From Steroidobacteraceae bacterium (GTDB lineage: Bacteria; Pseudomonadota; Gammaproteobacteria; Steroidobacterales; Steroidobacteraceae), in contig DASYKM010000173.1 of NCBI GenBank assembly GCA_035995425.1, positions 101,875 to 165,874 on the forward strand: 64,000 bases of DNA, in the 5' to 3' direction. The position numbers and the translations under genes were made by a program. Of this stretch, positions 32,409-44,865 are shown in pieces. The notes below the pieces were generated by a model. It was not told the origin of the DNA, made no database searches, and worked only from the letters and a program-made list of their open reading frames with translations. Within the stretch, counting starts at the first letter, position 1; each line of letters begins with the position of its first letter.

Positions 32409-33395
32409 CTACTTCACCAATGCGAGCCGGAAGCCGCGGTACGCACTGGCTTCCGCCGGCGGGTTGTCAGCCCGGCTCGCTGAACGTTCATCGCCCGCGC
32501 CGCTGCCGAAGCTGCCGCCACGATTCACACGTGCGGTGCCAGTGGCGGGGCCGGTGGGATCGGTGACTTCGCCACCGGGATAGAGCGCGTACCGGTCGCG
32601 ACACCACTGCCAGACGTTGCCGGCCATGTCGTACAGGCCGAAGTTGTTAGGGCGCTTGGTTGCAACGGCGCGCGGCCCGCCATTCGCGCCGGCCGCGACC
32701 TTGAAGCCCTTGCCTCGATAGCCGTCGGCGCTGTTCGCGTCGTACCAGGCGATGGCGTCGAGGGGTTCGGCATAGGTGGCGCCGGTGGTGCCGGCGCGCG
32801 CCGCATATTCCCACTGCGCCTCGGTCGGCAGGTTGTACTCATATCCGGCCGGCAGGCGACCCGCGGCGCGTTCAAGCACATTCAATCGCCGGCAGAATTC
32901 CATCGCGTCATCCCAGCTCACGAAGTACATCGGCAGGTCGGCGGATTCGTTGGCGAGATAGTCCGAAGCCTTCTCGCGCGAAAAGTTCATGTAGGCACGT
33001 TTCGTCTGCCGCTTGCCGCCGAGGTCGTATAGCGCGTTGTCGTCGATCACATGCATGAGCTGCGCGCGCACGTCGCGGCCCATGACCGCCTTCCACTGGC
33101 CGATCGTCACGTGGGTTCGTCCCAGCCAGAAGCCCTTGATCAGAGTGACCTTGGTCTGCGGCGCTTCGTCGGCGTGGCGCAAGGATTCGGAAGCCGGGCT
33201 GCCCATGGTGAAGCTGCCCGCTGGAATCCACGCCAGATCTAGTGTGACTTTGCCGGGCAACTCTAAGTTGTGAGGCTCGCCGACTGCGGGTGCGGCGCCA
33301 AATCCCAGCGCGGCGGTGCAGGCGAGCATCACACCGCAGATGCGCGCCACGAATGCCGGGTTCGAGATTTTCGCCATGCGGTGATTACACACCAT
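32409..33395 (-). CDS. formylglycine-generating-enzyme (SUMF1 / FGE-sulfatase) domain protein, exported
   Basis: 'GSFTMGSP', 'LPTEAQWEYAARAG', 'GLYDMAGNVWQWCRD', 'RVNRGGSF', 'YRGFRLA'. Confidence 0.8.
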   Translation of the reverse strand: MVCNHRMAKISNPAFVARICGVMLACTAALGFGAAPAVGEPHNLELPGKVTLDLAWIPAGSFTMGSPASESLRHADEAPQTKVTLIKGFWLGRTHVTIGQWKAVMGRDVRAQLMHVIDDNALYDLGGKRQTKRAYMNFSREKASDYLANESADLPMYFVSWDDAMEFCRRLNVLERAAGRLPAGYEYNLPTEAQWEYAARAGTTGATYAEPLDAIAWYDANSADGYRGKGFKVAAGANGGPRAVATKRPNNFGLYDMAGNVWQWCRDRYALYPGGEVTDPTGPATGTARVNRGGSFGSGAGDERSASRADNPPAEASAYRGFRLALVK

Positions 33396-36498: not shown

Positions 36499-37428
36499 AT
36501 GTGCTATTCAGCTCAAATCCAGGCCGCGTACATGAAGTACCTCCGCGAGACCGGCGCGGAGATGGACATCGACCAGTTCGAGGAGATCTTCGGCGCGCGA
36601 GTGTCGGATTCGAGCATCCGCATTCCGCGGGCCGTGGAGCGGTGGTTCGATGAGCCCAAGACCGATGGCGAGCGGCGCATCAAGACGTCGATCGATCAGT
36701 ATCGCGAGGCCGAGATCACCAAGCTCGAGCGTGAAGTGTTCATTCAGCACAAGCGGCTCGTCGATGCCGAGCGCTCGCTGGCAGCGGCGCCGACCAAAGC
36801 CGCGACCGAGAGCAAGCGCATCGCCGGCAACAAGATTGAGCAGGCGATGACGCGCCTCGAGCGGCTCAAAGCCACCAAGCCGCATGTGGCCGAGGCGCGC
36901 TTCTTCCCGATGCACCACGCGCCGATTGTTCTGCAGGACGGCAACCGGCGAGTCATGAGGTTAGGCCGCTATCACTGCCGTAAGCCGGGCGAGCCCGAGA
37001 GCATCGATCGAAAACTCCCCGGCCTCTACAGTGCGCGGCGAGATAGTTTGGGCAAGTACTGGCAAGGGTTGTTTGGCGTGTCGCACGCCGTGATGGCGAT
37101 CGAGTCGCTCTTCGAGAACGTCGAGCGCGATGGCAAGAACCAGGTGCTGCATTTCGTGCCACGGCCGGCGGAGACGATGCTGGTCGCGTGCCTGTGCGCG
37201 ACGTGGCAGGACCCGAGTGGCGGGCGGCCGCTGTTGTCGTTTGCGGCTATTACGGATGAGCCGCCGCCGGAGGTCGCGGCGGCTGGACATGATCGGATGA
37301 TCATCAATCTGAAGCCGGAGCACTTGGATGCGTGGCTTCAGCCTGCGGGAAGGTCGTTAGATGAGTTGGAGCGGATATTGAGTGACCGGCAGATACCTTA
37401 CTACGAGCATGAGGTGATGGCGGCGTAA
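36499..37428 (+). CDS. SRAP (SOS-response-associated peptidase / YedK)-like protein with a large insertion
   Basis: Cys2 ('MCYSAQ'), 'LYSARRDSL', 'HAVMAIESLFE', 'HDRMIINLKPEHLDAWL' parallel the SRAP motifs MCGR, NARAE, RCLIPADGFYEW and HDRMPVIL. About 120 aa of charged, coiled-coil-like sequence follow Cys2. Confidence 0.6.
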   Translation: MCYSAQIQAAYMKYLRETGAEMDIDQFEEIFGARVSDSSIRIPRAVERWFDEPKTDGERRIKTSIDQYREAEITKLEREVFIQHKRLVDAERSLAAAPTKAATESKRIAGNKIEQAMTRLERLKATKPHVAEARFFPMHHAPIVLQDGNRRVMRLGRYHCRKPGEPESIDRKLPGLYSARRDSLGKYWQGLFGVSHAVMAIESLFENVERDGKNQVLHFVPRPAETMLVACLCATWQDPSGGRPLLSFAAITDEPPPEVAAAGHDRMIINLKPEHLDAWLQPAGRSLDELERILSDRQIPYYEHEVMAA

Positions 37429-37702
37429 AGTAGAGAGTCGAGTCTACTCAGACAGGTCAATTCGCATCTTGCTCGCAACGGAAGGACTGATTCAGCGTTG
37501 CTCAAAACCTGTGCACCGCCAGTGCCTCGCGACCACGGCTACATCGATGGCAGTAGACTTTCGCGAAAGGGGGCACGCACGTTGCGTTCGCCCGCAAAGT
37601 ACCGCCATGCACCGTCTAAATGACTGAGCGAACGTCGGGCTGCTCTCCCTGCCGAAGCAAGTCTTTGATATATCAGCGGTATGATCATCGCCAACAAATC
37701 TG

Positions 37703-38986
37703 TTGACACAGATTCGAGATGATGAGAAAACGCCAGCAGAATTGTTGGCGACGGGCGACGCTGTGAAATTGAAACAAGGGCTTGGCAATTGGGTCGACGG
37801 CGATCGCTTCTTCAATCGCGAGAAGGAGATGGCCGTTTTTCGTACTTATCTTCTCGATGGCGTGAGCCTTCTGCTTGTTGCGCCACGGAGAATCGGAAAG
37901 ACAAGCTTCATGCGTGAAGCAGGTCGCCAACTAGAAACAGAAATCGTTGCTCTGCATGTTGATCTGCAGAAGGCGAATTCCGCCGAGGAAGCGATTGTCG
38001 AGCTGGGACTCGCATGTCGCCTTCTTGAGCCAATGTGGAAGCGCGCGTTAGGGGCATTCGGGCAGCTGTTCGGCAGAATTGAATCGCTCAAGCTGAGTGA
38101 GCTTTCGGTAACCCTCCGGGGCCTACTCAATTCTACAAACTGGCGCCAGAAGGGAGACGAGCTCATTGGTGTACTTTCGGAGTATTCGAAAGAAGTTAGA
38201 AAGCCCGTCGTAGTCTTTTTTGACGAAGTTCCAATTCTCGTAAACCGCTTGCTTCACGATGAAGCCGCGGGTTCTAAGGCTGAGCGTCGTGCTCGGGCAG
38301 ATGAGCTCATGTCTTGGATGCGAGACAATCTTATTAGGCATAAGAGTCGCGTAGTGTTTGTCGTGACCGGCTCGATTGGCCTTGAGCCAGTTCTACGTTC
38401 GGCCGGTCTTAGTGGGACTCTTAACGCCTTCCACTCTTTCGACCTGCGCCCATGGAAAGACGAAACCGCTGCTGCATGCCTCCTGGCTTTGGCACTTGAG
38501 AAGGAGTTCCCACTTCCCACGGCCGTGGCTGCCCATATGGTCAAACTACTCGGCAGCGCTATTCCGCATCATGTGCAGCTCTACTTCGACCACGTGTTTT
38601 CAAGCTACGTCCTTGACGAAGCAGCCGGCGAGGTGACGGTTGCGTACGTTGACGAGGTCTACTCGACAAGGATGATTGGTCTGCGAGGCCATGCCGATCT
38701 GATGCATATGGAGGAACGCCTGCGCCTCGTGTTAACAGAATCAAGATTCTGCCTTGCGCTTACTCTTCTTACGGAGGCAGCGGCGGTTGGATTGCTCACT
38801 GTTAGCGCCAGCAAATCAATCGTGTCGAGTCATCGTGCGACCAATGATGACTTGCTTGAGACCTTGGCAATACTCGAACACGATGGATACTTGTGTAAGC
38901 AAGCAGATCGGTTTGTTTTTGTCTCCAACCTAGTTAGAGACTGGTGGCGGAATCGCTTCGGGTTTGGCTACTGTCCAGCTCAGTGA
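37703..38986 (+). CDS. P-loop NTPase, Arch_ATPase / Orc-Cdc6-like with C-terminal wHTH
   Basis: 'FFNREKEMAVFRTYL', Walker A 'APRRIGKTS' (37880-37906), Walker B 'VVVFFDEV', C-terminal 'LETLAILEHDGYL...FVSNLVRDWW'. The track start is TTG and is uncertain. Low-GC codon usage. Confidence 0.7.
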   Translation: MTQIRDDEKTPAELLATGDAVKLKQGLGNWVDGDRFFNREKEMAVFRTYLLDGVSLLLVAPRRIGKTSFMREAGRQLETEIVALHVDLQKANSAEEAIVELGLACRLLEPMWKRALGAFGQLFGRIESLKLSELSVTLRGLLNSTNWRQKGDELIGVLSEYSKEVRKPVVVFFDEVPILVNRLLHDEAAGSKAERRARADELMSWMRDNLIRHKSRVVFVVTGSIGLEPVLRSAGLSGTLNAFHSFDLRPWKDETAAACLLALALEKEFPLPTAVAAHMVKLLGSAIPHHVQLYFDHVFSSYVLDEAAGEVTVAYVDEVYSTRMIGLRGHADLMHMEERLRLVLTESRFCLALTLLTEAAAVGLLTVSASKSIVSSHRATNDDLLETLAILEHDGYLCKQADRFVFVSNLVRDWWRNRFGFGYCPAQ

Positions 38987-38994
38987 GCGTTTAT

Positions 38995-41900
38995 ATGAAT
39001 TACAAGTACAATCCCGGCTTCTTGAGCGACGAAGAAATAATTCGCAAGTTCGTAGTTCGCCAGAAGGACTTTCGGATCCTTCGAGAGATTCTTCGTGAAA
39101 ATACTCATGCGTCTTCAAATCGACATGTCCTAGTAATTGGGCCTCGCGGTTCAGGAAAATCGACGCTCGCGCGGCGCTTAGTCGCGGAAGTCAGGCAGGA
39201 TGAAATACTGCGCTCAGATTGGTACCCGATTGTTCTGGCGGAAGAAAGCTATGGTGTGACTTCTCCGGGTGAATTCTGGCTGGAATGTGTTTTCCAGCTT
39301 TCCGAACATTCCGGCCGACTAGACGTAGCAACGCGATACCGCGAGCTAAAGATTGAGCAGGATGAAGCGCGGCTAAGGGAACTCGCTCTCGGCGCTTTGA
39401 TTTCGTTCGCCGCAAGAATGCAATGCCGTTTTCTCTTGGTCGTCGAAAACCTTAATCAGATCCTCGACGAGCAGATGGATGCGCAGCAGGGTTGGGAGAT
39501 CCGCCACGCATTGCAAAACGTTCCGGAAATCATGTTGCTTGCGACGGCGACGAAGAGATTCGACAGTATAGAAAATGCCAAGGACGCTCTATTTGAGCAG
39601 TTCAAAGTGCATGAACTGCGGCCGCTGACTCTCAGCGATGTATCTGCATTGTGGGGCGGATTGACCGATGAACGCCTCCGACGCTCAAAGTCGCGTCCGA
39701 TTCAAATTCTCACAGGCGGAAGCCCGCGATTGGTGGTGATTCTTGCGGAATTCGCAGTCAGCCATTCGTTTGCCAATTTGATGTCGCAATTGAATTCACT
39801 TGTCGACCAATACACCGACTACTTCAAATCGCAGCTTGATGCATTGGCGTCTGCTGAGCGCAAGGTGTTCGTAACGGTTTTGGAAAAGTGGGATCCTGCA
39901 ACTACACGTGAAGTTGCGGAGAGCGCGCGTGTTTCGGTAAATACGACGAGCGCTCAACTTAGCAGACTTCGTTCGCGAGGTGCCGTTCACCGCCGAATCT
40001 CGAATGGGAGCCAATACTGGGAGGCGTCAGAAAGGCTTTTTAATCTTTACTACCTAATGAGGCGACGCGGCGCTCCTTCAAGTCGCGTCAACGCGTTGGT
40101 CAGGTTCATGACCGTATATTACGGCCGTGAGCAGCTGTATGAGCGAGCAACAGACCTCGCCAGAGAGTGCGGCGCGCTCGATCCAAAGCTGCGGCAGGAC
40201 CACTACTTTGCTTTGGAGCAGATTATTCCGAAGCTAGATGAGGAGAGGCGCGCGGCTTTGCTCTCGCAGTCGCCTCCGGAGTTTGCAAAACGGTTTGAGA
40301 TTGCTGTGGCGGGGCAGCATAGGAAAGAGAATGCGACACCTAAGGGCGATCGCCTTTCGGTAAGAAAACGAATACTGGAGCTTGTTCAAGAAGGCGATGC
40401 GGAGACGGCGACTAAGCTTCTCGAAGAATGCGAAGGGTTAAGCAAGGAAGATTCAGCACTTTTGGCGCTGGTAGGTTTCTCGAACGGGCTGAATTCTGGA
40501 GATTTTGGAAAGGCTCACGAGCTAGTTGGCAAAGCGCTTGAACTAGACAGTAGCGTCGGTGTGATTTGGTATTTTCGTGGACTCTTGCTGAGAGCGCAGG
40601 ATCTTCATCGTGAAGCCATTGGAGCGCTGAAGAATGCAATTGAGCGTGGCAACGACGACGCAGATGCATGGCTCGCGCTCGGAGATTCGCACGCTGAAAT
40701 GGCGGAAAAATCAGAAGCAGAAGCATCCTATCGTTTTGCAATCGCCAAGGATCGTGACCACGCGCATTCTTGGCTTGCTCTCGGCTGCCTTTTGGCCACT
40801 CAAATAGAGAGGCTCGATGAGGCAGAGGAAGCGCTGCGCACCGCGGTGAAGCTTAAGCCCGATGAAGAGGAATTCCTCGGCGCCCTTGGCAAGTTTCTGC
40901 TTGAGAAGCGGGGCGATGCGTCAAGTGCGCAAAACTTATTTCGATCAATTGTGCTTCGTGACTCAACGGGATGGCGGGGGTGGATGTACTTAATTCGCGC
41001 CCTTTCAGAAGGAAAGCGCTCGTCCGAAGAAATCGCGGTGCAGTTTAGGACTGCGATGGAAACGCCTGGCCTTATGAAGCGCTGGAAGGTGAGTTACGCA
41101 TATGCGGAGCATCTAAGCAGCGTCCGTGAAGACAAGCGGGCCGAGCGGGTCTTGCAGGAAGCTACGAGCTCCGACCCAGAGAGCGGGGAAGCGTGGTTTC
41201 AATACGCTCGCCTCTTGTCCCTAGATCTCGATAATCACAAGCTTTCGATGCAGGCGTATAAGCGCGCATTGGATTTAGAACCGAATGAAGGCTATTTCTG
41301 GAGCACTTTTGGAAACTACCTAACAAAGCAAGGAGAGCACCTTGCTGAAGCCGAAGAAGCCTATAGAAAAGCGACTAAAGTCAGTCCGAACGAATGTGGC
41401 GCGTGGCGAACACTGGGTGATCATCTCGTAGAACGAGAACGACATGAAGAAGCGCGTCAGTATTTTGAGAAGGCGCTTTCAGTCAATCCACGCTGCGGTT
41501 GCGCAGTTGCTGGCTATTCTTCAATCCTAGCAAGAGGGGAGAAAGGCTTTGACGAGGTAGATGAGATGATTCGTGAGTTTATTGCGCGGGTTCCGGAAAT
41601 TCCTGGGCCTCACGTTGCTCTTGCAAAATACATGTTTTCGTTGCGGCAAGATCGGCAGGGAGCAATTAAAGAATACCTAAAGGCTCTCAAGAAGGGTGCA
41701 ACTCCGAGTGCCTTGGTCGAATCTTTCATCGATGTGTTAGACCTAAGCGAGTTCTCCCATGCCGTCGAGTCTTTGGCTTCCTTCTTGGAAGCTTCGCGCG
41801 AGGGCGATGAAGAAGACATTGGGAACTTGATTGCGTGGACTCTCTACCTAAAACAGGCAAAGGGAGAATTGCTCGAATACGCGCTATCGCTTGCCCAAGA

Positions 41901-42303
41901 AAGTGTGAATCGTCTGCCCGGTCAGTGGGAAAGGCGACACACTTTGGCTAGCTTGCAGTTTGTTGCGGGGCGAAATGAAGAGTCGTTTGCTCAGATTCGT
42001 TGGTTGGCTGATCAGATTCTCGGTGGGTCATTGGAGGCTTTCATTGACCTATGCATCGCAGTCGCTCGCGGCGGCGAAGGAGATATTTTGTTAGGTGTTT
42101 TGTCGAACTCTCGCTCTAGAGAGACATTCGAGCCAATGATCGTGGCTTTGCAATTTGATCAGTCTAAGGAAGAGCCCCGAGTCGCGCGAGAGGTGCTTGA
42201 GGTCGCGCGCGATATCCATCGACAAATTGTCGAAGACAAAAATGCAACTACTCATCAACTCGATTCCGTTACAACGAGTCTCGGCGTCACGGGGAGAATT
42301 TAA
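38995..42303 (+). CDS. STAND-like P-loop NTPase-wHTH-TPR array protein (1102 aa)
   Basis: ATG lies 8 nt after the upstream stop. 'FVVRQKDFRILREIL', Walker A 'GPRGSGKST' (39139-39165), Walker B 'FLLVVENLN', wHTH 'ATTREVAESARVSVNTTSAQLSRLRSRGAV'. At least 10 TPR-like repeats lie at about 40400-41700 (e.g. 'AWLALGDSHAEMAEKSEAEASYRFAIAKDRDHAHSW'). Confidence 0.75.
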   Translation: MNYKYNPGFLSDEEIIRKFVVRQKDFRILREILRENTHASSNRHVLVIGPRGSGKSTLARRLVAEVRQDEILRSDWYPIVLAEESYGVTSPGEFWLECVFQLSEHSGRLDVATRYRELKIEQDEARLRELALGALISFAARMQCRFLLVVENLNQILDEQMDAQQGWEIRHALQNVPEIMLLATATKRFDSIENAKDALFEQFKVHELRPLTLSDVSALWGGLTDERLRRSKSRPIQILTGGSPRLVVILAEFAVSHSFANLMSQLNSLVDQYTDYFKSQLDALASAERKVFVTVLEKWDPATTREVAESARVSVNTTSAQLSRLRSRGAVHRRISNGSQYWEASERLFNLYYLMRRRGAPSSRVNALVRFMTVYYGREQLYERATDLARECGALDPKLRQDHYFALEQIIPKLDEERRAALLSQSPPEFAKRFEIAVAGQHRKENATPKGDRLSVRKRILELVQEGDAETATKLLEECEGLSKEDSALLALVGFSNGLNSGDFGKAHELVGKALELDSSVGVIWYFRGLLLRAQDLHREAIGALKNAIERGNDDADAWLALGDSHAEMAEKSEAEASYRFAIAKDRDHAHSWLALGCLLATQIERLDEAEEALRTAVKLKPDEEEFLGALGKFLLEKRGDASSAQNLFRSIVLRDSTGWRGWMYLIRALSEGKRSSEEIAVQFRTAMETPGLMKRWKVSYAYAEHLSSVREDKRAERVLQEATSSDPESGEAWFQYARLLSLDLDNHKLSMQAYKRALDLEPNEGYFWSTFGNYLTKQGEHLAEAEEAYRKATKVSPNECGAWRTLGDHLVERERHEEARQYFEKALSVNPRCGCAVAGYSSILARGEKGFDEVDEMIREFIARVPEIPGPHVALAKYMFSLRQDRQGAIKEYLKALKKGATPSALVESFIDVLDLSEFSHAVESLASFLEASREGDEEDIGNLIAWTLYLKQAKGELLEYALSLAQESVNRLPGQWERRHTLASLQFVAGRNEESFAQIRWLADQILGGSLEAFIDLCIAVARGGEGDILLGVLSNSRSRETFEPMIVALQFDQSKEEPRVAREVLEVARDIHRQIVEDKNATTHQLDSVTTSLGVTGRI

Positions 42304-42310
42304 GCTAGGT

Positions 42311-42350
42311 GGCGGGCCCGTCAGTTACAGCTGCCGGGCCCGCCTTGTTC
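42311..42350 (+). terminator. rho-independent-type hairpin after the NTPase-TPR gene
   Basis: Perfect 10-bp stem ggcgggcccg (42311-42320) / cgggcccgcc (42335-42344), 14-nt loop, then 'ttgttc'. Confidence 0.5.
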
Positions 42351-42523
42351 CAACGAAAAGCGAAGCAAACCGGGCATTGCCCGCACTTGCCACTACTTTA
42401 GGTTAGACGCCCACCGCAGTTTAGTGCGGTCCTACTGGTATTGCCAAGTTCTGCGCCCGGTCCCCACTCACGCGGGGGCAAAGCCGCGGGCTGCAAGAAC
42501 ACATCACCAGTTAGGAAACTCAA

Positions 42524-42829
42524 ATGAACGAATTTCAAGTTACATGTATTACAAAGCCAAATCGGGCAAGCCAACATGAACACATCACACATATCGGCAA
42601 TATCGCAGGTTCCTGGAAGTTGACACGTGAAGAGGCAATTCGGCGCATCGACGCGAACATCGAGGGTTACTACACAATTGAGAAGACCACAGGAAAGAGA
42701 GCCGTAGTTGGCGTAGTTCGCGGGGACGGTAACAAAGCGCCGTACTTACGAACGCACGCCGACGGAAAATGGAATGACAATCTTCTCGCTCAGGACGAGT
42801 GCACGGCGAGTTGTGACCTGAAAGGTTGA
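42524..42829 (+). CDS. DUF3892-like small protein
   Basis: 101 aa. 'HEHITHIG...WKLTREEAIRRIDAN..YYT....GKRAVVGVV' resembles DUF3892. 'aggaaactcaa' lies upstream of the ATG. Confidence 0.6.
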   Translation: MNEFQVTCITKPNRASQHEHITHIGNIAGSWKLTREEAIRRIDANIEGYYTIEKTTGKRAVVGVVRGDGNKAPYLRTHADGKWNDNLLAQDECTASCDLKG

Positions 42830-42836
42830 TAGGGGT

Positions 42837-42868
42837 GGCCGGTCGCTGTTCCGACCGGCCGTTCTTTG
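42837..42868 (+). terminator. rho-independent terminator after the DUF3892 gene
   Basis: Perfect 9-bp stem ggccggtcg (42837-42845) / cgaccggcc (42852-42860), 6-nt loop, then 'gttctttg'. Confidence 0.6.
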
Positions 42869-43134
42869 CGTGAATTGTCTATGCAATCGGACGATCAAGA
42901 CTGGTCAAATTAACACTTGTAGAGCATCAACTACGTGCGCGCAGTCCGATGTGCTTTTATTTTTGGGACGTAAAACATGTTGGAATCGTTAGAGGCGCAA
43001 GTGAATTGTCTGCCCAAATCGAACACAGAAAGCCAAAGTCAACCCCCGTTCACGGGTTCTTGATCAATCAAGTCCTCGACTAAGTTCACCCAGCAAGGAA
43101 TGGGGAAGAACTCTAACAACGTCGAGGTGCTTTC

Positions 43135-44865
43135 ATGGATTGCCGTCGCTTTCAAGTCGCCGCGCTCACGCTGGCCGGCTTGCTCTTCAACATTTCTTCA
43201 CTGCAAGCTGGTCCTTCCGCTTCCGGCCCCAACACAGTTCTCGAGGTGACGGGCGATGGCCTCGCGCGCCTCGATGTATCCCTCACCGCCAAAGGATTGA
43301 AAGAACCGCTCCGGCTCTCGTTCAAGGGAGACGGTGGCTTGATCGTCGGCAGCTTCGCGCTCTCAACCGAAGTCAGCACGAACTACGAGATCACGGCCTT
43401 CAACACCGACGGTAAAGCCACGCACTACGGCAAGGGATCGCTGCCGCGCTTTGTGAACGCGGATCGGCCGCTGGTTCTGCCACTGGCAGCGACGGGCGAG
43501 GGCAGCGGACTCGTGGTCTCGCTGGCGCACGAACGCCTGGCGATCGACGTGAAGCCGGCGGAGAAGGGCGAGTACACGGCGCACTTCAGCGCCTTCGACG
43601 CACTCGGCAATCCAAAGGAACTGGATCCGAAAGACATCCGTTGGGGTCTGTCGGATTCGCGCTATCTCGACATTCAGCAATTCGACAAGTACGACGTCAA
43701 ACTACCGCCGAAAGATCCGCTGCAGGTCTTCGAGCTCTGCTCGCTGACGCCGGAGGTCACCGCCTGCATCCCGAACGGCCACTGCCGCCAGGTCAAGGTC
43801 TGCTCTGATCCGTGGAAGATGATCAGCGCGGGCGGCAACCATACCTGCGGCATCAAGGAGAGCGGTGTCGCGTTCTGCTGGGGCCGGAACCAGGAAGGCG
43901 AGCTGGGCGTGACGACCAACGTCTCCTGCAGCGCCAACACGGCGATCAACGCGCCTTGCTCCCGGCGTCCGCTGCCGGTGGTGTGCCAGCCCGGCGCGCC
44001 GTGCCGCTTCACGCAGATTTCTTCGGGCCAGACGTTTACGGCGGCCATCGACACCAACGGCGACGCCTGGTGGTGGGGCCGCGGCACCGTGGATCATCAC
44101 CGGGTAAACGCGGTGCTCAACGGCGTTCAGGTGAAGTTCTCCTCGGTCGCGGCGGGCTTCGGCCATGCCTGTGCGATCTCGCAGCTGCGCAGCGAAATCT
44201 GGTGCTGGGGTACGAATGCCTTCGGTGAGTCCGGGTTACCGGCGTCTCCGCAAGAAGTCCACTACCTGGCGCCCGCTCGCGTTCTCGTGCCGTTCAAGTT
44301 CAAGAAGGTCGTGGCGGGCGGTGAACACACCTGCGCCATCGGCGACACGGGCGTGGACATCGTGTGCTGGGGACGCGACGACAACAATCAGACCAGCGGC
44401 CCGAGCTCGACCAAGCTCGGTCAGTTCTTCTTCCAGCAGTTCGGCGGACTGATCCAGATCAACGATGTGGCCGCCTCGCAGACGAGCACTTGCGTCACGC
44501 TCGCGGGTACCAACGGCGTGCGCTGCTGGGGCGAACGCGCAACGACGAGCGTGGCTGGATTCGGCGCACCGGATCATCTGACGGTGGGCATCGCGCAGGT
44601 GTGCGCGACCACCGGGCAGGTGGCCAACTGCGTCGGCACTAACAACTGGGCCGAGCTCGGCAACGGTTCGCTCTTGCAGCAGATGGTTCCGGGTCCGGTG
44701 AAAGCACCGCCGCCGCTATACATGGGCATCTCGGCGGGCGACACGCACACCTGCGGCGTCACGCCGACGGGCGAAGCCTATTGCTGGGGCGGCGATCAGT
44801 CGGGCCAGGTCGGCAACGGCACGTCCGGCAACAGCGTGCGCGAGCCAGCGCTGGCGACGCCCTAA
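43135..44865 (+). CDS. secreted RCC1 / BLIP-II-repeat beta-propeller protein
   Basis: Signal peptide. Six to seven repeats carry 'CWG': 'HTCGIKESGVAFCWGRNQEGELG', 'IWCWGTNAFGESG', 'IVCWGRDDNNQTSG', 'VRCWGERA', 'HTCGVTPTGEAYCWGGDQSGQVGNG'. Confidence 0.8.
   Translation: MDCRRFQVAALTLAGLLFNISSLQAGPSASGPNTVLEVTGDGLARLDVSLTAKGLKEPLRLSFKGDGGLIVGSFALSTEVSTNYEITAFNTDGKATHYGKGSLPRFVNADRPLVLPLAATGEGSGLVVSLAHERLAIDVKPAEKGEYTAHFSAFDALGNPKELDPKDIRWGLSDSRYLDIQQFDKYDVKLPPKDPLQVFELCSLTPEVTACIPNGHCRQVKVCSDPWKMISAGGNHTCGIKESGVAFCWGRNQEGELGVTTNVSCSANTAINAPCSRRPLPVVCQPGAPCRFTQISSGQTFTAAIDTNGDAWWWGRGTVDHHRVNAVLNGVQVKFSSVAAGFGHACAISQLRSEIWCWGTNAFGESGLPASPQEVHYLAPARVLVPFKFKKVVAGGEHTCAIGDTGVDIVCWGRDDNNQTSGPSSTKLGQFFFQQFGGLIQINDVAASQTSTCVTLAGTNGVRCWGERATTSVAGFGAPDHLTVGIAQVCATTGQVANCVGTNNWAELGNGSLLQQMVPGPVKAPPPLYMGISAGDTHTCGVTPTGEAYCWGGDQSGQVGNGTSGNSVREPALATP

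Follow-up and report, generated by a model that had tools for sequence, protein, structure and literature searches.

A two-gene STAND-type NTPase module with a variable tetratricopeptide-repeat array on a low-GC island of a Steroidobacteraceae genome, and its possible role in conflict with mobile elements

Two adjacent genes, here called A and B, lie in a stretch of 64,000 nucleotides (nt) of contig DASYKM010000173.1, which belongs to a Steroidobacteraceae metagenome-assembled genome (MAG); this whole stretch is referred to as the window, and positions are counted along it. An earlier note, made from the sequence of the window, had described the two products as a tandem pair of STAND/Orc-like NTPases, the second with a winged helix and tetratricopeptide repeats (TPR), and had proposed a conflict or defence role for them. 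Our results indicate that A and B form a conserved two-gene unit that is found in many bacterial phyla and has been transferred horizontally. We tentatively propose, as a prospect falling somewhat short of even, that it is a self-contained, horizontally mobile STAND (NLR-like) module with a role in conflict or defence, in which B would be the sensor and switch and A its partner; conflict with, or defence against, mobile elements appears to be its most likely biological role.

Judged by its structure model, protein A belongs with the SSO1545-type AAA+/STAND ATPases, ends in a winged helix and has no sensor or effector region, because the best whole-chain matches of its AlphaFold model (predicted local distance difference test, pLDDT, 90.6; predicted template-modelling score, pTM, 0.88) in the Protein Data Bank (PDB) were the ATPase_2 proteins PAB2304 (2qen; E = 3.9e-10, TM(target) 0.73) and SSO1545 (2fna; E = 3e-9, TM(target) 0.69). 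These were the first two of 321 significant matches, and were followed by the ORC/Cdc6 subunits 2qby, 1w5s and 1w5t, other AAA+ proteins and the plant NLR RPP1. Pfam returned weak AAA, ATPase_2 and AAA_16 matches beginning at the 'F.NRE.E' helix of A, that to ATPase_2 (PF01637) scoring 20.8 bits with a gathering cut-off of 33.2; many orthologues have precomputed PF01637 matches, and A had no NCBIfam match. In an alignment of 62 sequences, the P-loop 'RR.GKTS', a strand end 'TGSIG', a lid motif 'IPHHVQ' and the 'RDWW..RF' helix at the C-terminus were invariant, as were D394, Y396, W414 and W415. The model places the Walker B motif on strand 169-174 and builds the winged helix from helices 367-393 and strands 397-406. 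The Asp-Glu pair of Walker B was kept by all A-type partners compared, distant plasmid homologues included, and at least 729 homologues of A were recovered by homology search.

Protein B is of the STAND type, with a P-loop NTPase, a GxP helical domain, a winged helix and variable C-terminal repeats all present; the GxP motif is said to be a hallmark of STAND proteins, and in B the residues I238, L239, T240, G241, G242, R245 and L246 were invariant or nearly so. The NTPase matched AAA_16 above the Pfam cut-off (37.9 and 32.6 bits, respectively), while nSTAND1, nSTAND3 and NACHT each reached about 20 bits, below cut-offs of about 27. Weak matches to ORC-CDC6-like, AAA_22 and ORC4 were also obtained in B, the ORC-CDC6-like family (PF24389) covering aa 6-69 only, and nSTAND_NTPase5 appeared as weak or faint precomputed matches in B homologues. 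The Walker B of this protein is atypical, reading 'LLVVEN', with E151 invariant or nearly so and N152 invariant among 53 sequences, on a strand that spans residues 145-150 in the model, and the (E/D)N form was also found in the B relatives of Clostridium and Moraxella, at 20-25% identity. Experimenters introduce this replacement of the catalytic Glu by Asn when they wish to lock AAA+ proteins with ATP bound. Since the Walker B of B is E-N and the catalytic Glu is lost, we infer that B binds ATP and probably hydrolyses it poorly. Regarding the winged helix, TrmB, MarR and HTH_20 Pfam matches were located at aa 286-338, the wing strands at 331-336 and 339-344 in the model, and in the conserved basic helix next to it (aa 347-357) N350, Y352, L354 and R356 were invariant. 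A common origin of A and B as recent paralogues was considered and rejected, as BLASTP gave E = 0.06 restricted to the P-loop region and the two belong to different NTPase families.

Past residue 345 the model of B is all-helical and consists of the TPR array, a variable middle of low confidence and a C-terminal bundle of high confidence; the multiple sequence alignment for the TPR region was shallow, and several TPR segments have a pLDDT below 50. TPR families of Pfam matched at approximately aa 530-840, with E-values down to 9e-23. With full-length B as query, Foldseek matches in the PDB were dominated by TPR scaffolds (OGT, APC/C, SKI3, IFT-A) and were uninformative for the NTPase, and when the N-terminal 430 aa were used for a profile search of the PDB, only ORC4 P-loop and MarR winged-helix fragments came up. 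Taken together, motifs, Pfam and models agree with the architecture that the earlier note had proposed for the tandem pair, that is, a P-loop, a Walker B and a winged helix in both proteins, followed in B by a TPR array and a C-terminal helical region.

The C-terminal bundle, which we call the cap, ends in the pattern '(L/F)EP(L/M)xV(G/A)L ... AxE(I/V)xEV(A/G)xD(V/I)..(R/Q)I', in which variation is absent or rare at E1046, P1047, E1066, E1069 and D1073, and the pattern is kept even in TPR-less B members of about 480 aa. An exhaustive phmmer/HMMER scan of 1.84 billion proteins gave 110 matches to the cap, all of them extreme C-termini of B-type proteins or 5'-truncated fragments. No Pfam family matched the last 262 aa of B, a word-index homology search with these residues was likewise empty, and a profile search of the C-terminal region against PDB sequences found TPR matches for its first half and none for the terminal motif. 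Sequence comparisons thus point to the cap as a feature found only in the B family.

The absence of a recognisable effector, as described in the earlier note, was borne out, as no effector domain was found in A or B by Pfam, NCBIfam, PADLOC or the structure models, and, as far as the models indicate, no part of B is enzyme-like. The note had further suggested that the effector or adaptor might lie in an N- or C-terminal region of B. A cryptic enzymatic domain at the C-terminus was rejected, given that this region has no family, only B-type homologues and an all-helical model, and residues 1-45 were rejected as an adaptor domain because the NTPase begins at residue 19 and is preceded only by an 18-aa conserved 'KYNPGF' peptide. 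The 'F..R(E/Q)K(E/D)...L' element shared by the N-termini of A and B is real; however, it corresponds to the first helix of the AAA_16/ATPase_2 domain and not to a separate adaptor, because the Pfam alignments begin there, at profile position 1-2.

Conservation of the gene order was nearly complete. Relatives of A were scanned for in one genome per GTDB species and were found in at least 492 genomes; the best 80 of these cover more than 10 phyla, and carriers include Acidobacteriota, Myxococcota, Desulfobacterota, Planctomycetota, Cyanobacteria, Chlorobi, Latescibacterota, Actinomycetota and the candidate phyla radiation (CPR). A B homologue lay directly 3' of A, on the same strand and after a gap of about 10-90 nt, in 85 of 86 loci, the exception being a contig end. 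Conversely, starting from B, an A-sized gene (407-428 aa) was present upstream in all three look-ups, which included a TPR-less B of 497 aa and Gll1119 of Gloeobacter violaceus (WP_011141119.1). No recurrent third gene emerged when 985 flanking open reading frames (ORFs), from up to 10 kb on either side at 83 loci, were clustered all-against-all; the largest cluster was present at 13 of the 83 loci and resembles a generic sensor kinase. A tblastn search of 72,556 plasmids yielded only four distant A-like genes, at 23-25% identity. In those of Clostridium and Moraxella the gene 3' of the A-like gene is B-like (E = 1e-25 and 6e-34, respectively), so that pairs at 20-25% identity keep the gene order, and a Segatella plasmid carries a more divergent pair whose downstream ATPase is shorter (298 aa). 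Because the distant plasmid pairs keep it, the two-gene architecture is older and wider than the core clade. The family sizes obtained by word-index search are lower bounds, because a search with B residues 1-502 missed the B protein of the window, although exactly this protein is present in the collection, and also its orthologues of 64-67% identity, the best match being at 54%.

The length of B ranged from 440 to 1287 aa across loci, and its parts differ in conservation: between the B of the window and its closest orthologue, identity was 64% in the NTPase and 73% in the winged helix, with 35% in the TPR array and 40% in the cap. Relative to the NTPase core, the TPR array would therefore be a fast-diverging sensor.

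In the window, the pair was acquired by horizontal transfer. It sits on an island with a GC content of 0.47-0.57, in flanks of 0.61-0.68, in agreement with the foreign composition previously noted for this region; the drop begins exactly at the end of a SRAP gene and stops at the start of an RCC1-repeat gene, both of which have the composition of the host. The island had no detectable tRNA gene, integrase, flanking direct repeats or terminal repeats, and no tandem repeats, iterons, structured RNA or Rfam match. For an empty-site comparison, the exact SRAP protein was matched only on the source contig, and the 3' end of this gene, written as a degenerate DNA pattern, had no match in the metagenome collection.

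With these features in mind, we propose that B combines sensor and switch, its fast-evolving TPR array binding the trigger, that the cap would be an autoinhibitory or partner-docking element, and that A, which has no sensor of its own, would be an obligate partner produced in step with B. A hetero-complex of A and B is suggested by the tight translational arrangement of the genes and their absolute co-occurrence. Binding of a ligand to the TPR array would relieve inhibition by the cap and be followed by ATP-dependent hetero-oligomerisation of B with A; the assembly itself would then constitute the output, provided by A as the only hydrolysis-competent subunit. Because an enzymatic effector domain is lacking, this output would be direct or recruited: most likely, the surfaces of the NTPase and winged helix would bind or distort nucleic acid in the manner of ORC/Cdc6, or a host factor would be recruited. 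There are precedents for the separate elements of this scheme. KpAvs8 is a functional Avs despite its degenerate Walker motifs (PMC13581612), and inactive NTPase subunits are known in ORC and in some STANDs (PMC8195603; KpAvs8, PMC13581612); in plants, the NB-ARC domain of Rx1 depends on its P-loop to bind and distort DNA (PMC4599002), an output that requires no enzyme; and 2qby, among the fold matches of A, is an archaeal Orc1/Cdc6 heterodimer on DNA. In its most specific form, the proposal would be that of an effector-less immune module, a prokaryotic counterpart of sensor-helper NLR pairs, in which B detects an invader molecule and nucleates A, and the ATP-driven oligomer is itself the effector, for instance by clamping or distorting nucleic acid of the invader or the host, without any nuclease, protease or NADase; we regard this version as unlikely.

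A defence role is plausible and unproven, and the genomic context leans toward it only weakly. In its favour, besides the horizontal transfer and the fast-diverging sensor, one of the two closest orthologues (locus L001) belongs to an integrative element that also carries relaxase, integrase and toxin-antitoxin genes; the other (L002) has SLFN_AlbA_2, DUF6119 and weak OLD-TOPRIM and integrase matches nearby; HEPN_AbiU2 and an insertion sequence (IS) are found near the pair at another locus (L006); the Segatella plasmid pair adjoins WYL and DUF262 genes, and the Clostridium plasmid pair is near DUF3800, GIY-YIG and integrase genes. Several results weigh against it. Within 5 kb of the pair at 27 core-clade loci, 148 neighbours matched 162 Pfam families, each at most three times; almost all of these neighbours are metabolic or housekeeping, integrase and transposase families did not recur, and the only PADLOC matches among the neighbours were to generic models of the kinase and helicase types. 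Several pairs sit between core genes, for instance polA and pnp. The pair was not found in 50,697 phage genomes, IMG/VR gave a single weak partial match, and plasmid occurrences are rare. Neither A nor B has a specific model in PADLOC 2.0, NCBIfam 20 (June 2026) or Pfam, the only PADLOC match being a partial one to mad8 (E = 1.4e-7) over the ATPase core of B, aa 40-210, and our literature searches found no experimental data on any member and no named system with this architecture. The lack of an effector domain counts on the same side, and since there is none, the output step is deduced entirely. Thus, of the earlier defence proposal, the architectural part stands and is strengthened by the strict A-to-B linkage; the expected enrichment in defence islands was weak or negative in the sample of 27 core-clade loci, and favourable neighbourhoods are single cases, confined to the nearest orthologues and to the divergent pairs on plasmids.

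Three further loci are described here for their particular organisation. At L089:4770-7506, in a 14.6-Mb metagenome contig (ERZ24894577 ctg522475l), a short-form pair (409 and 501 aa) has IS genes (rve, DDE_Tnp_1, HTH_Tnp_1) on either side, an arrangement that suggests mobilisation as a composite unit. On plasmid pNP7-2 of Moraxella osloensis (L094; NZ_CP024445.1, 69946-83124), the distant pair (397 and 699 aa, both annotated as 'hypothetical protein') lies in a region rich in defence genes. It is preceded by genes for a 7-cyano-7-deazaguanine synthase, QatD, a protein kinase and transposases, and is followed by genes for a dUTPase, a protein resembling PRTases (E = 6e-19 with PADLOC PRTase_III-A) and a full-length ORC-CDC6-like protein (PF24389, E = 1e-136). 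In a Candidatus Poribacteria MAG (L082:2308-6042; JACRIR010000268.1), the ORF directly downstream of the A gene encodes 1244 aa and joins a TPR-less B (about 500 aa: NTPase, winged helix and cap) to a NACHT domain (42.9 bits, above the cut-off) and, at the C-terminus, an FGE-sulfatase domain (E = 1e-46). The fusion may be genuine, or it may result from misassembly or a frameshift. It speaks for a conflict role, as NACHT joined to an FGE-sulfatase sensor is a typical architecture among conflict-associated STANDs, and this sensor type has been described for defence-associated STANDs (Lee et al., PMC13581612).

The main rival of a conflict role, disfavoured by our results and in our judgement rather unlikely, is a regulator pair of the MalT/IniR/AfsR kind, in which the TPR array of B would sense a small molecule or protein, ATP would drive oligomerisation and the winged helices of one or both proteins would bind host DNA and so control transcription, a housekeeping or developmental task in bacteria whose lifestyles are complex. 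MarR/TrmB-like winged helices are indeed present in both proteins, a toxic effector is lacking, most neighbours have housekeeping functions, and the carriers are chiefly Myxococcota, Cyanobacteria, Planctomycetota and Acidobacteriota; moreover, non-immune STANDs with an SSO1545-like ATPase and a helical-repeat sensor exist, such as IniR and MalT (PMC5760070, PMC13581612). However, the winged helix corresponds to the integral winged-helix domain (WHD) of the nucleotide-binding oligomerisation (NOD) module and not to an added output domain of the LuxR or OmpR type, and neither Pfam nor NCBIfam detected a LuxR/GerE- or OmpR/SARP-type domain in A or B. The pair has no conserved neighbouring target genes or synteny; it moves horizontally, in integrative elements, IS-flanked units and plasmid defence regions; its sensor diverges much faster than its core; and the NACHT-FGE-sulfatase fusion also counts against such a regulator.

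Two other explanations were weighed. An improbable one, outside both conflict and transcription, is a cytoplasmic assembly or chaperone-like scaffold, with a TPR platform and an AAA+ partner acting on host protein complexes, for which the patchy, horizontally transferred distribution and the lack of conserved client genes nearby are unfavourable, even though TPR arrays are generic interaction platforms, the top structural matches of B were OGT, APC/C, SKI3 and IFT-A, and the neighbours are housekeeping genes. In addition, the NTPases are of the STAND/ORC switch type, the models have no pore-loop or hexameric features of the ClpX/Cdc48 kind, and the Walker B of B is degenerate. The other, which we consider very improbable, is maintenance of a mobile element: an ORC/Cdc6-like initiator, or a TnsC/TniB/IstB-like ATPase pair, that would replicate, target or partition its own island. 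This would fit the ORC/Cdc6-like fold of A, given that archaeal Orc1/Cdc6 proteins can bind origins as heterodimers (2qby), as well as the weak ORC-CDC6-like, AAA_22 and ORC4 matches of B and the foreign island in the window. Nevertheless, transposase, integrase, replicase and partition genes are not consistently adjacent, the island contains no iterons, tandem repeats or terminal repeats, and plasmids and phages, in which one would most expect such functions, almost never carry the pair; TIGR02928 (orc1/cdc6) scored 18 bits on B with a cut-off of 181, and a long variable TPR array is atypical of initiators.

Among known systems, the pair resembles the antiviral Avs/AVAST and bNACHT proteins of bacteria and archaea in that the STAND NTPase of B is central, has a GxP motif and a winged helix, and precedes a long C-terminal sensor of variable, TPR-like repeats; the gene is also mobile. 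It differs from Avs proteins, which usually carry an N-terminal effector, by the absence of a nuclease, protease, SIR2 or TIR effector, by the obligate second NTPase gene upstream and by the family-specific C-terminal cap; no PADLOC 2.0 Avs/NLR model matched, and there is no sequence relationship to solved Avs structures. A sensor NTPase that bears repeats together with a sensor-less partner NTPase is also the organisation of sensor-helper NLRs in animals and plants (NAIP-NLRC4; a sensor NLR with NRC; RGA5-RGA4), and in paired plant NLRs the genes are adjacent as well; the resemblance is a functional analogy only and implies no common descent of the pairing. Unlike those helpers, A lacks a death domain of the CARD or CC type, and its NTPase is ATPase_2/ORC-like, not NB-ARC or NACHT. 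With SSO1545 and PAB2304 (PF01637; 2fna, 2qen), A shares the whole fold, the P-loop 'RR.GKT', the DE Walker B, the helical lid and the winged helix; nonetheless, identity is 15-17%, A scores below the Pfam threshold, and no obligate TPR-NTPase partner has been described for these archaeal proteins, for which we know of no assigned function.

MalT, IniR and AfsR likewise combine a STAND NTPase, a helical-repeat sensor, a terminal output module and oligomerisation driven by ATP and ligand (PMC5760070); in contrast to the pair, they are single proteins with a dedicated LuxR/OmpR-type DNA-binding domain, encoded beside their targets, whereas the pair has no such domain, has a second NTPase gene and lacks conserved target genes. 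Archaeal Orc1/Cdc6 proteins resemble it as two AAA+ winged-helix proteins that could bind DNA jointly, with a fold similar to that of A; the pair differs from them in having no origin context or family-model match, a TPR array and an accessory distribution in bacteria. As for MADS, the mad8 match is confined to aa 40-210 of B, and no methyltransferase or other mad genes are present in the island. Accordingly, the pair is not a member of Avs, Orc1/Cdc6, the MalT-type regulators or MADS, and its domain content matches neither an already named system nor a MalT/LuxR-type family, either of which the earlier note had named as an outcome contrary to its proposal. Its building blocks are familiar; by the searches made, what appears to be new is the obligate pairing, the asymmetry of DE and (E/D)N Walker B motifs and the B-specific cap. 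The STAND census of Lee et al. 2026 (589 STAND clades) probably contains these clades.

To our knowledge, nearly all characterised bacterial NLR-like switch proteins couple the switch to a fused enzymatic effector. Were the pair a defence system, it would represent a NOD module that gives an output without an enzyme, and a simple bacterial model of sensor-helper NLR logic; were it a regulator, it would constitute a new two-protein class of STAND signalling and a large clade that would have to be left out when context-based screens count immune systems. In either case, the family has clear boundaries and diagnostic motifs, and candidate source organisms include Gloeobacter violaceus (gll1119 and the A-type gene upstream), Moraxella osloensis (pNP7-2) and Clostridium estertheticum (pCF003-70). 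The coordinates of all features are given in Table 1.

Table 1. Features of the A-B gene pair and of the island that carries it, in window positions
Feature	Position	Strand	Description
Gene A	37703..38986	+	427 aa from TTG (or 407-413 aa); ATPase_2/SSO1545-type AAA+/STAND ATPase with C-terminal winged helix (by model)
A Walker A 'APRRIGKTS' (aa 60-68)	37880..37906	+	R62, R63, G65, K66, T67 and S68 invariant in 62 sequences
A Walker B 'VVVFFDE' (aa 169-175)	38207..38227	+	Canonical hhhhDE; D174 and E175 invariant
A C-terminal winged helix and terminal 'RDWW..RF' helix (aa ~367-419)	38801..38959	+	Model secondary structure
Gene B	38995..42303	+	1102 aa from ATG; STAND-type NTPase, winged helix, variable TPR array, conserved C-terminal helical cap
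B Walker A 'GPRGSGKS' (aa 49-56)	39139..39162	+	R51, G52, G54 and K55 invariant; family form GPRGSGK(S/T)
B Walker B 'LLVVEN' (aa 147-152)	39433..39450	+	Glu at the Asp position, Asn replacing the catalytic Glu
B 'TGGSPRL', GxP motif of STAND helical domain (aa 240-246)	39712..39732	+	Conserved form ILTGGSPRL
B winged helix (aa 286-345) and 'NLYYLMRRRG' basic helix (aa 347-357)	39850..40065	+	Pfam and model
B variable TPR/TPR-like array, putative sensor (aa ~455-900)	40357..41694	+	Pfam TPR families; all-helical model
B C-terminal helical cap (aa 937-1096)	41803..42282	+	Predicted; pLDDT mostly >85
GC-rich hairpin after B	42311..42344	+	14-nt arms, 93% complementary; probable terminator or transcript-stabilising stem
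DUF3892 gene	42524..42829	+	101 aa; Pfam PF13031, E = 9.5e-16
Low-GC island	~37430..43130	.	~5.7 kb; carries A, B and the DUF3892 gene only

Gene calling on the source contig by JGI and by NCBI agrees with the ORFs of both genes, for which the NCBI product names are 'hypothetical protein' for A and 'tetratricopeptide repeat protein' for B, and the ORF coordinates confirm the 8-nt same-strand spacer reported previously. The start of A is uncertain, the candidates being TTG at 37703, TTG at 37745 (which gives the 413-aa product of one public call) and GTG at 37763; homologues align only from about residue 20. An 18-nt inverted repeat (37688-37751; 89% complementary, 28-nt spacer) spans the three candidate start codons and could be an operator or an mRNA structure acting on initiation. 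The strong hairpin said to close the pair was also recovered, with a folding energy of -30.1 kcal/mol (z = -3.6) and none of 200 shuffled sequences equally stable; a terminator function is plausible but not canonical, because the U-tract on its 3' side is weak (TTGTT).

The DUF3892 gene lies 220 nt downstream of B, past the hairpin and inside the island. Its suggested participation as a partner or third component was ruled out, as it is not conserved beside the pair at the 83 loci, which have no recurrent third gene, and because of this absence in other genomes the gene probably arrived with the pair in one transfer, as separate cargo. Of the genes bordering the island, the SRAP (YedK-like) gene at 36499-37428 encodes a protein that begins with the catalytic 'MC' and matches Pfam SRAP only at aa 125-296, about 120 residues after the N-terminus being an unmatched insertion, and the RCC1-repeat gene on the other side (43135-44865) encodes 576 aa with a signal-peptide-like N-terminus. 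Further upstream in the window, a stand-alone FGE-sulfatase gene is located at 32409-33395 on the minus strand.

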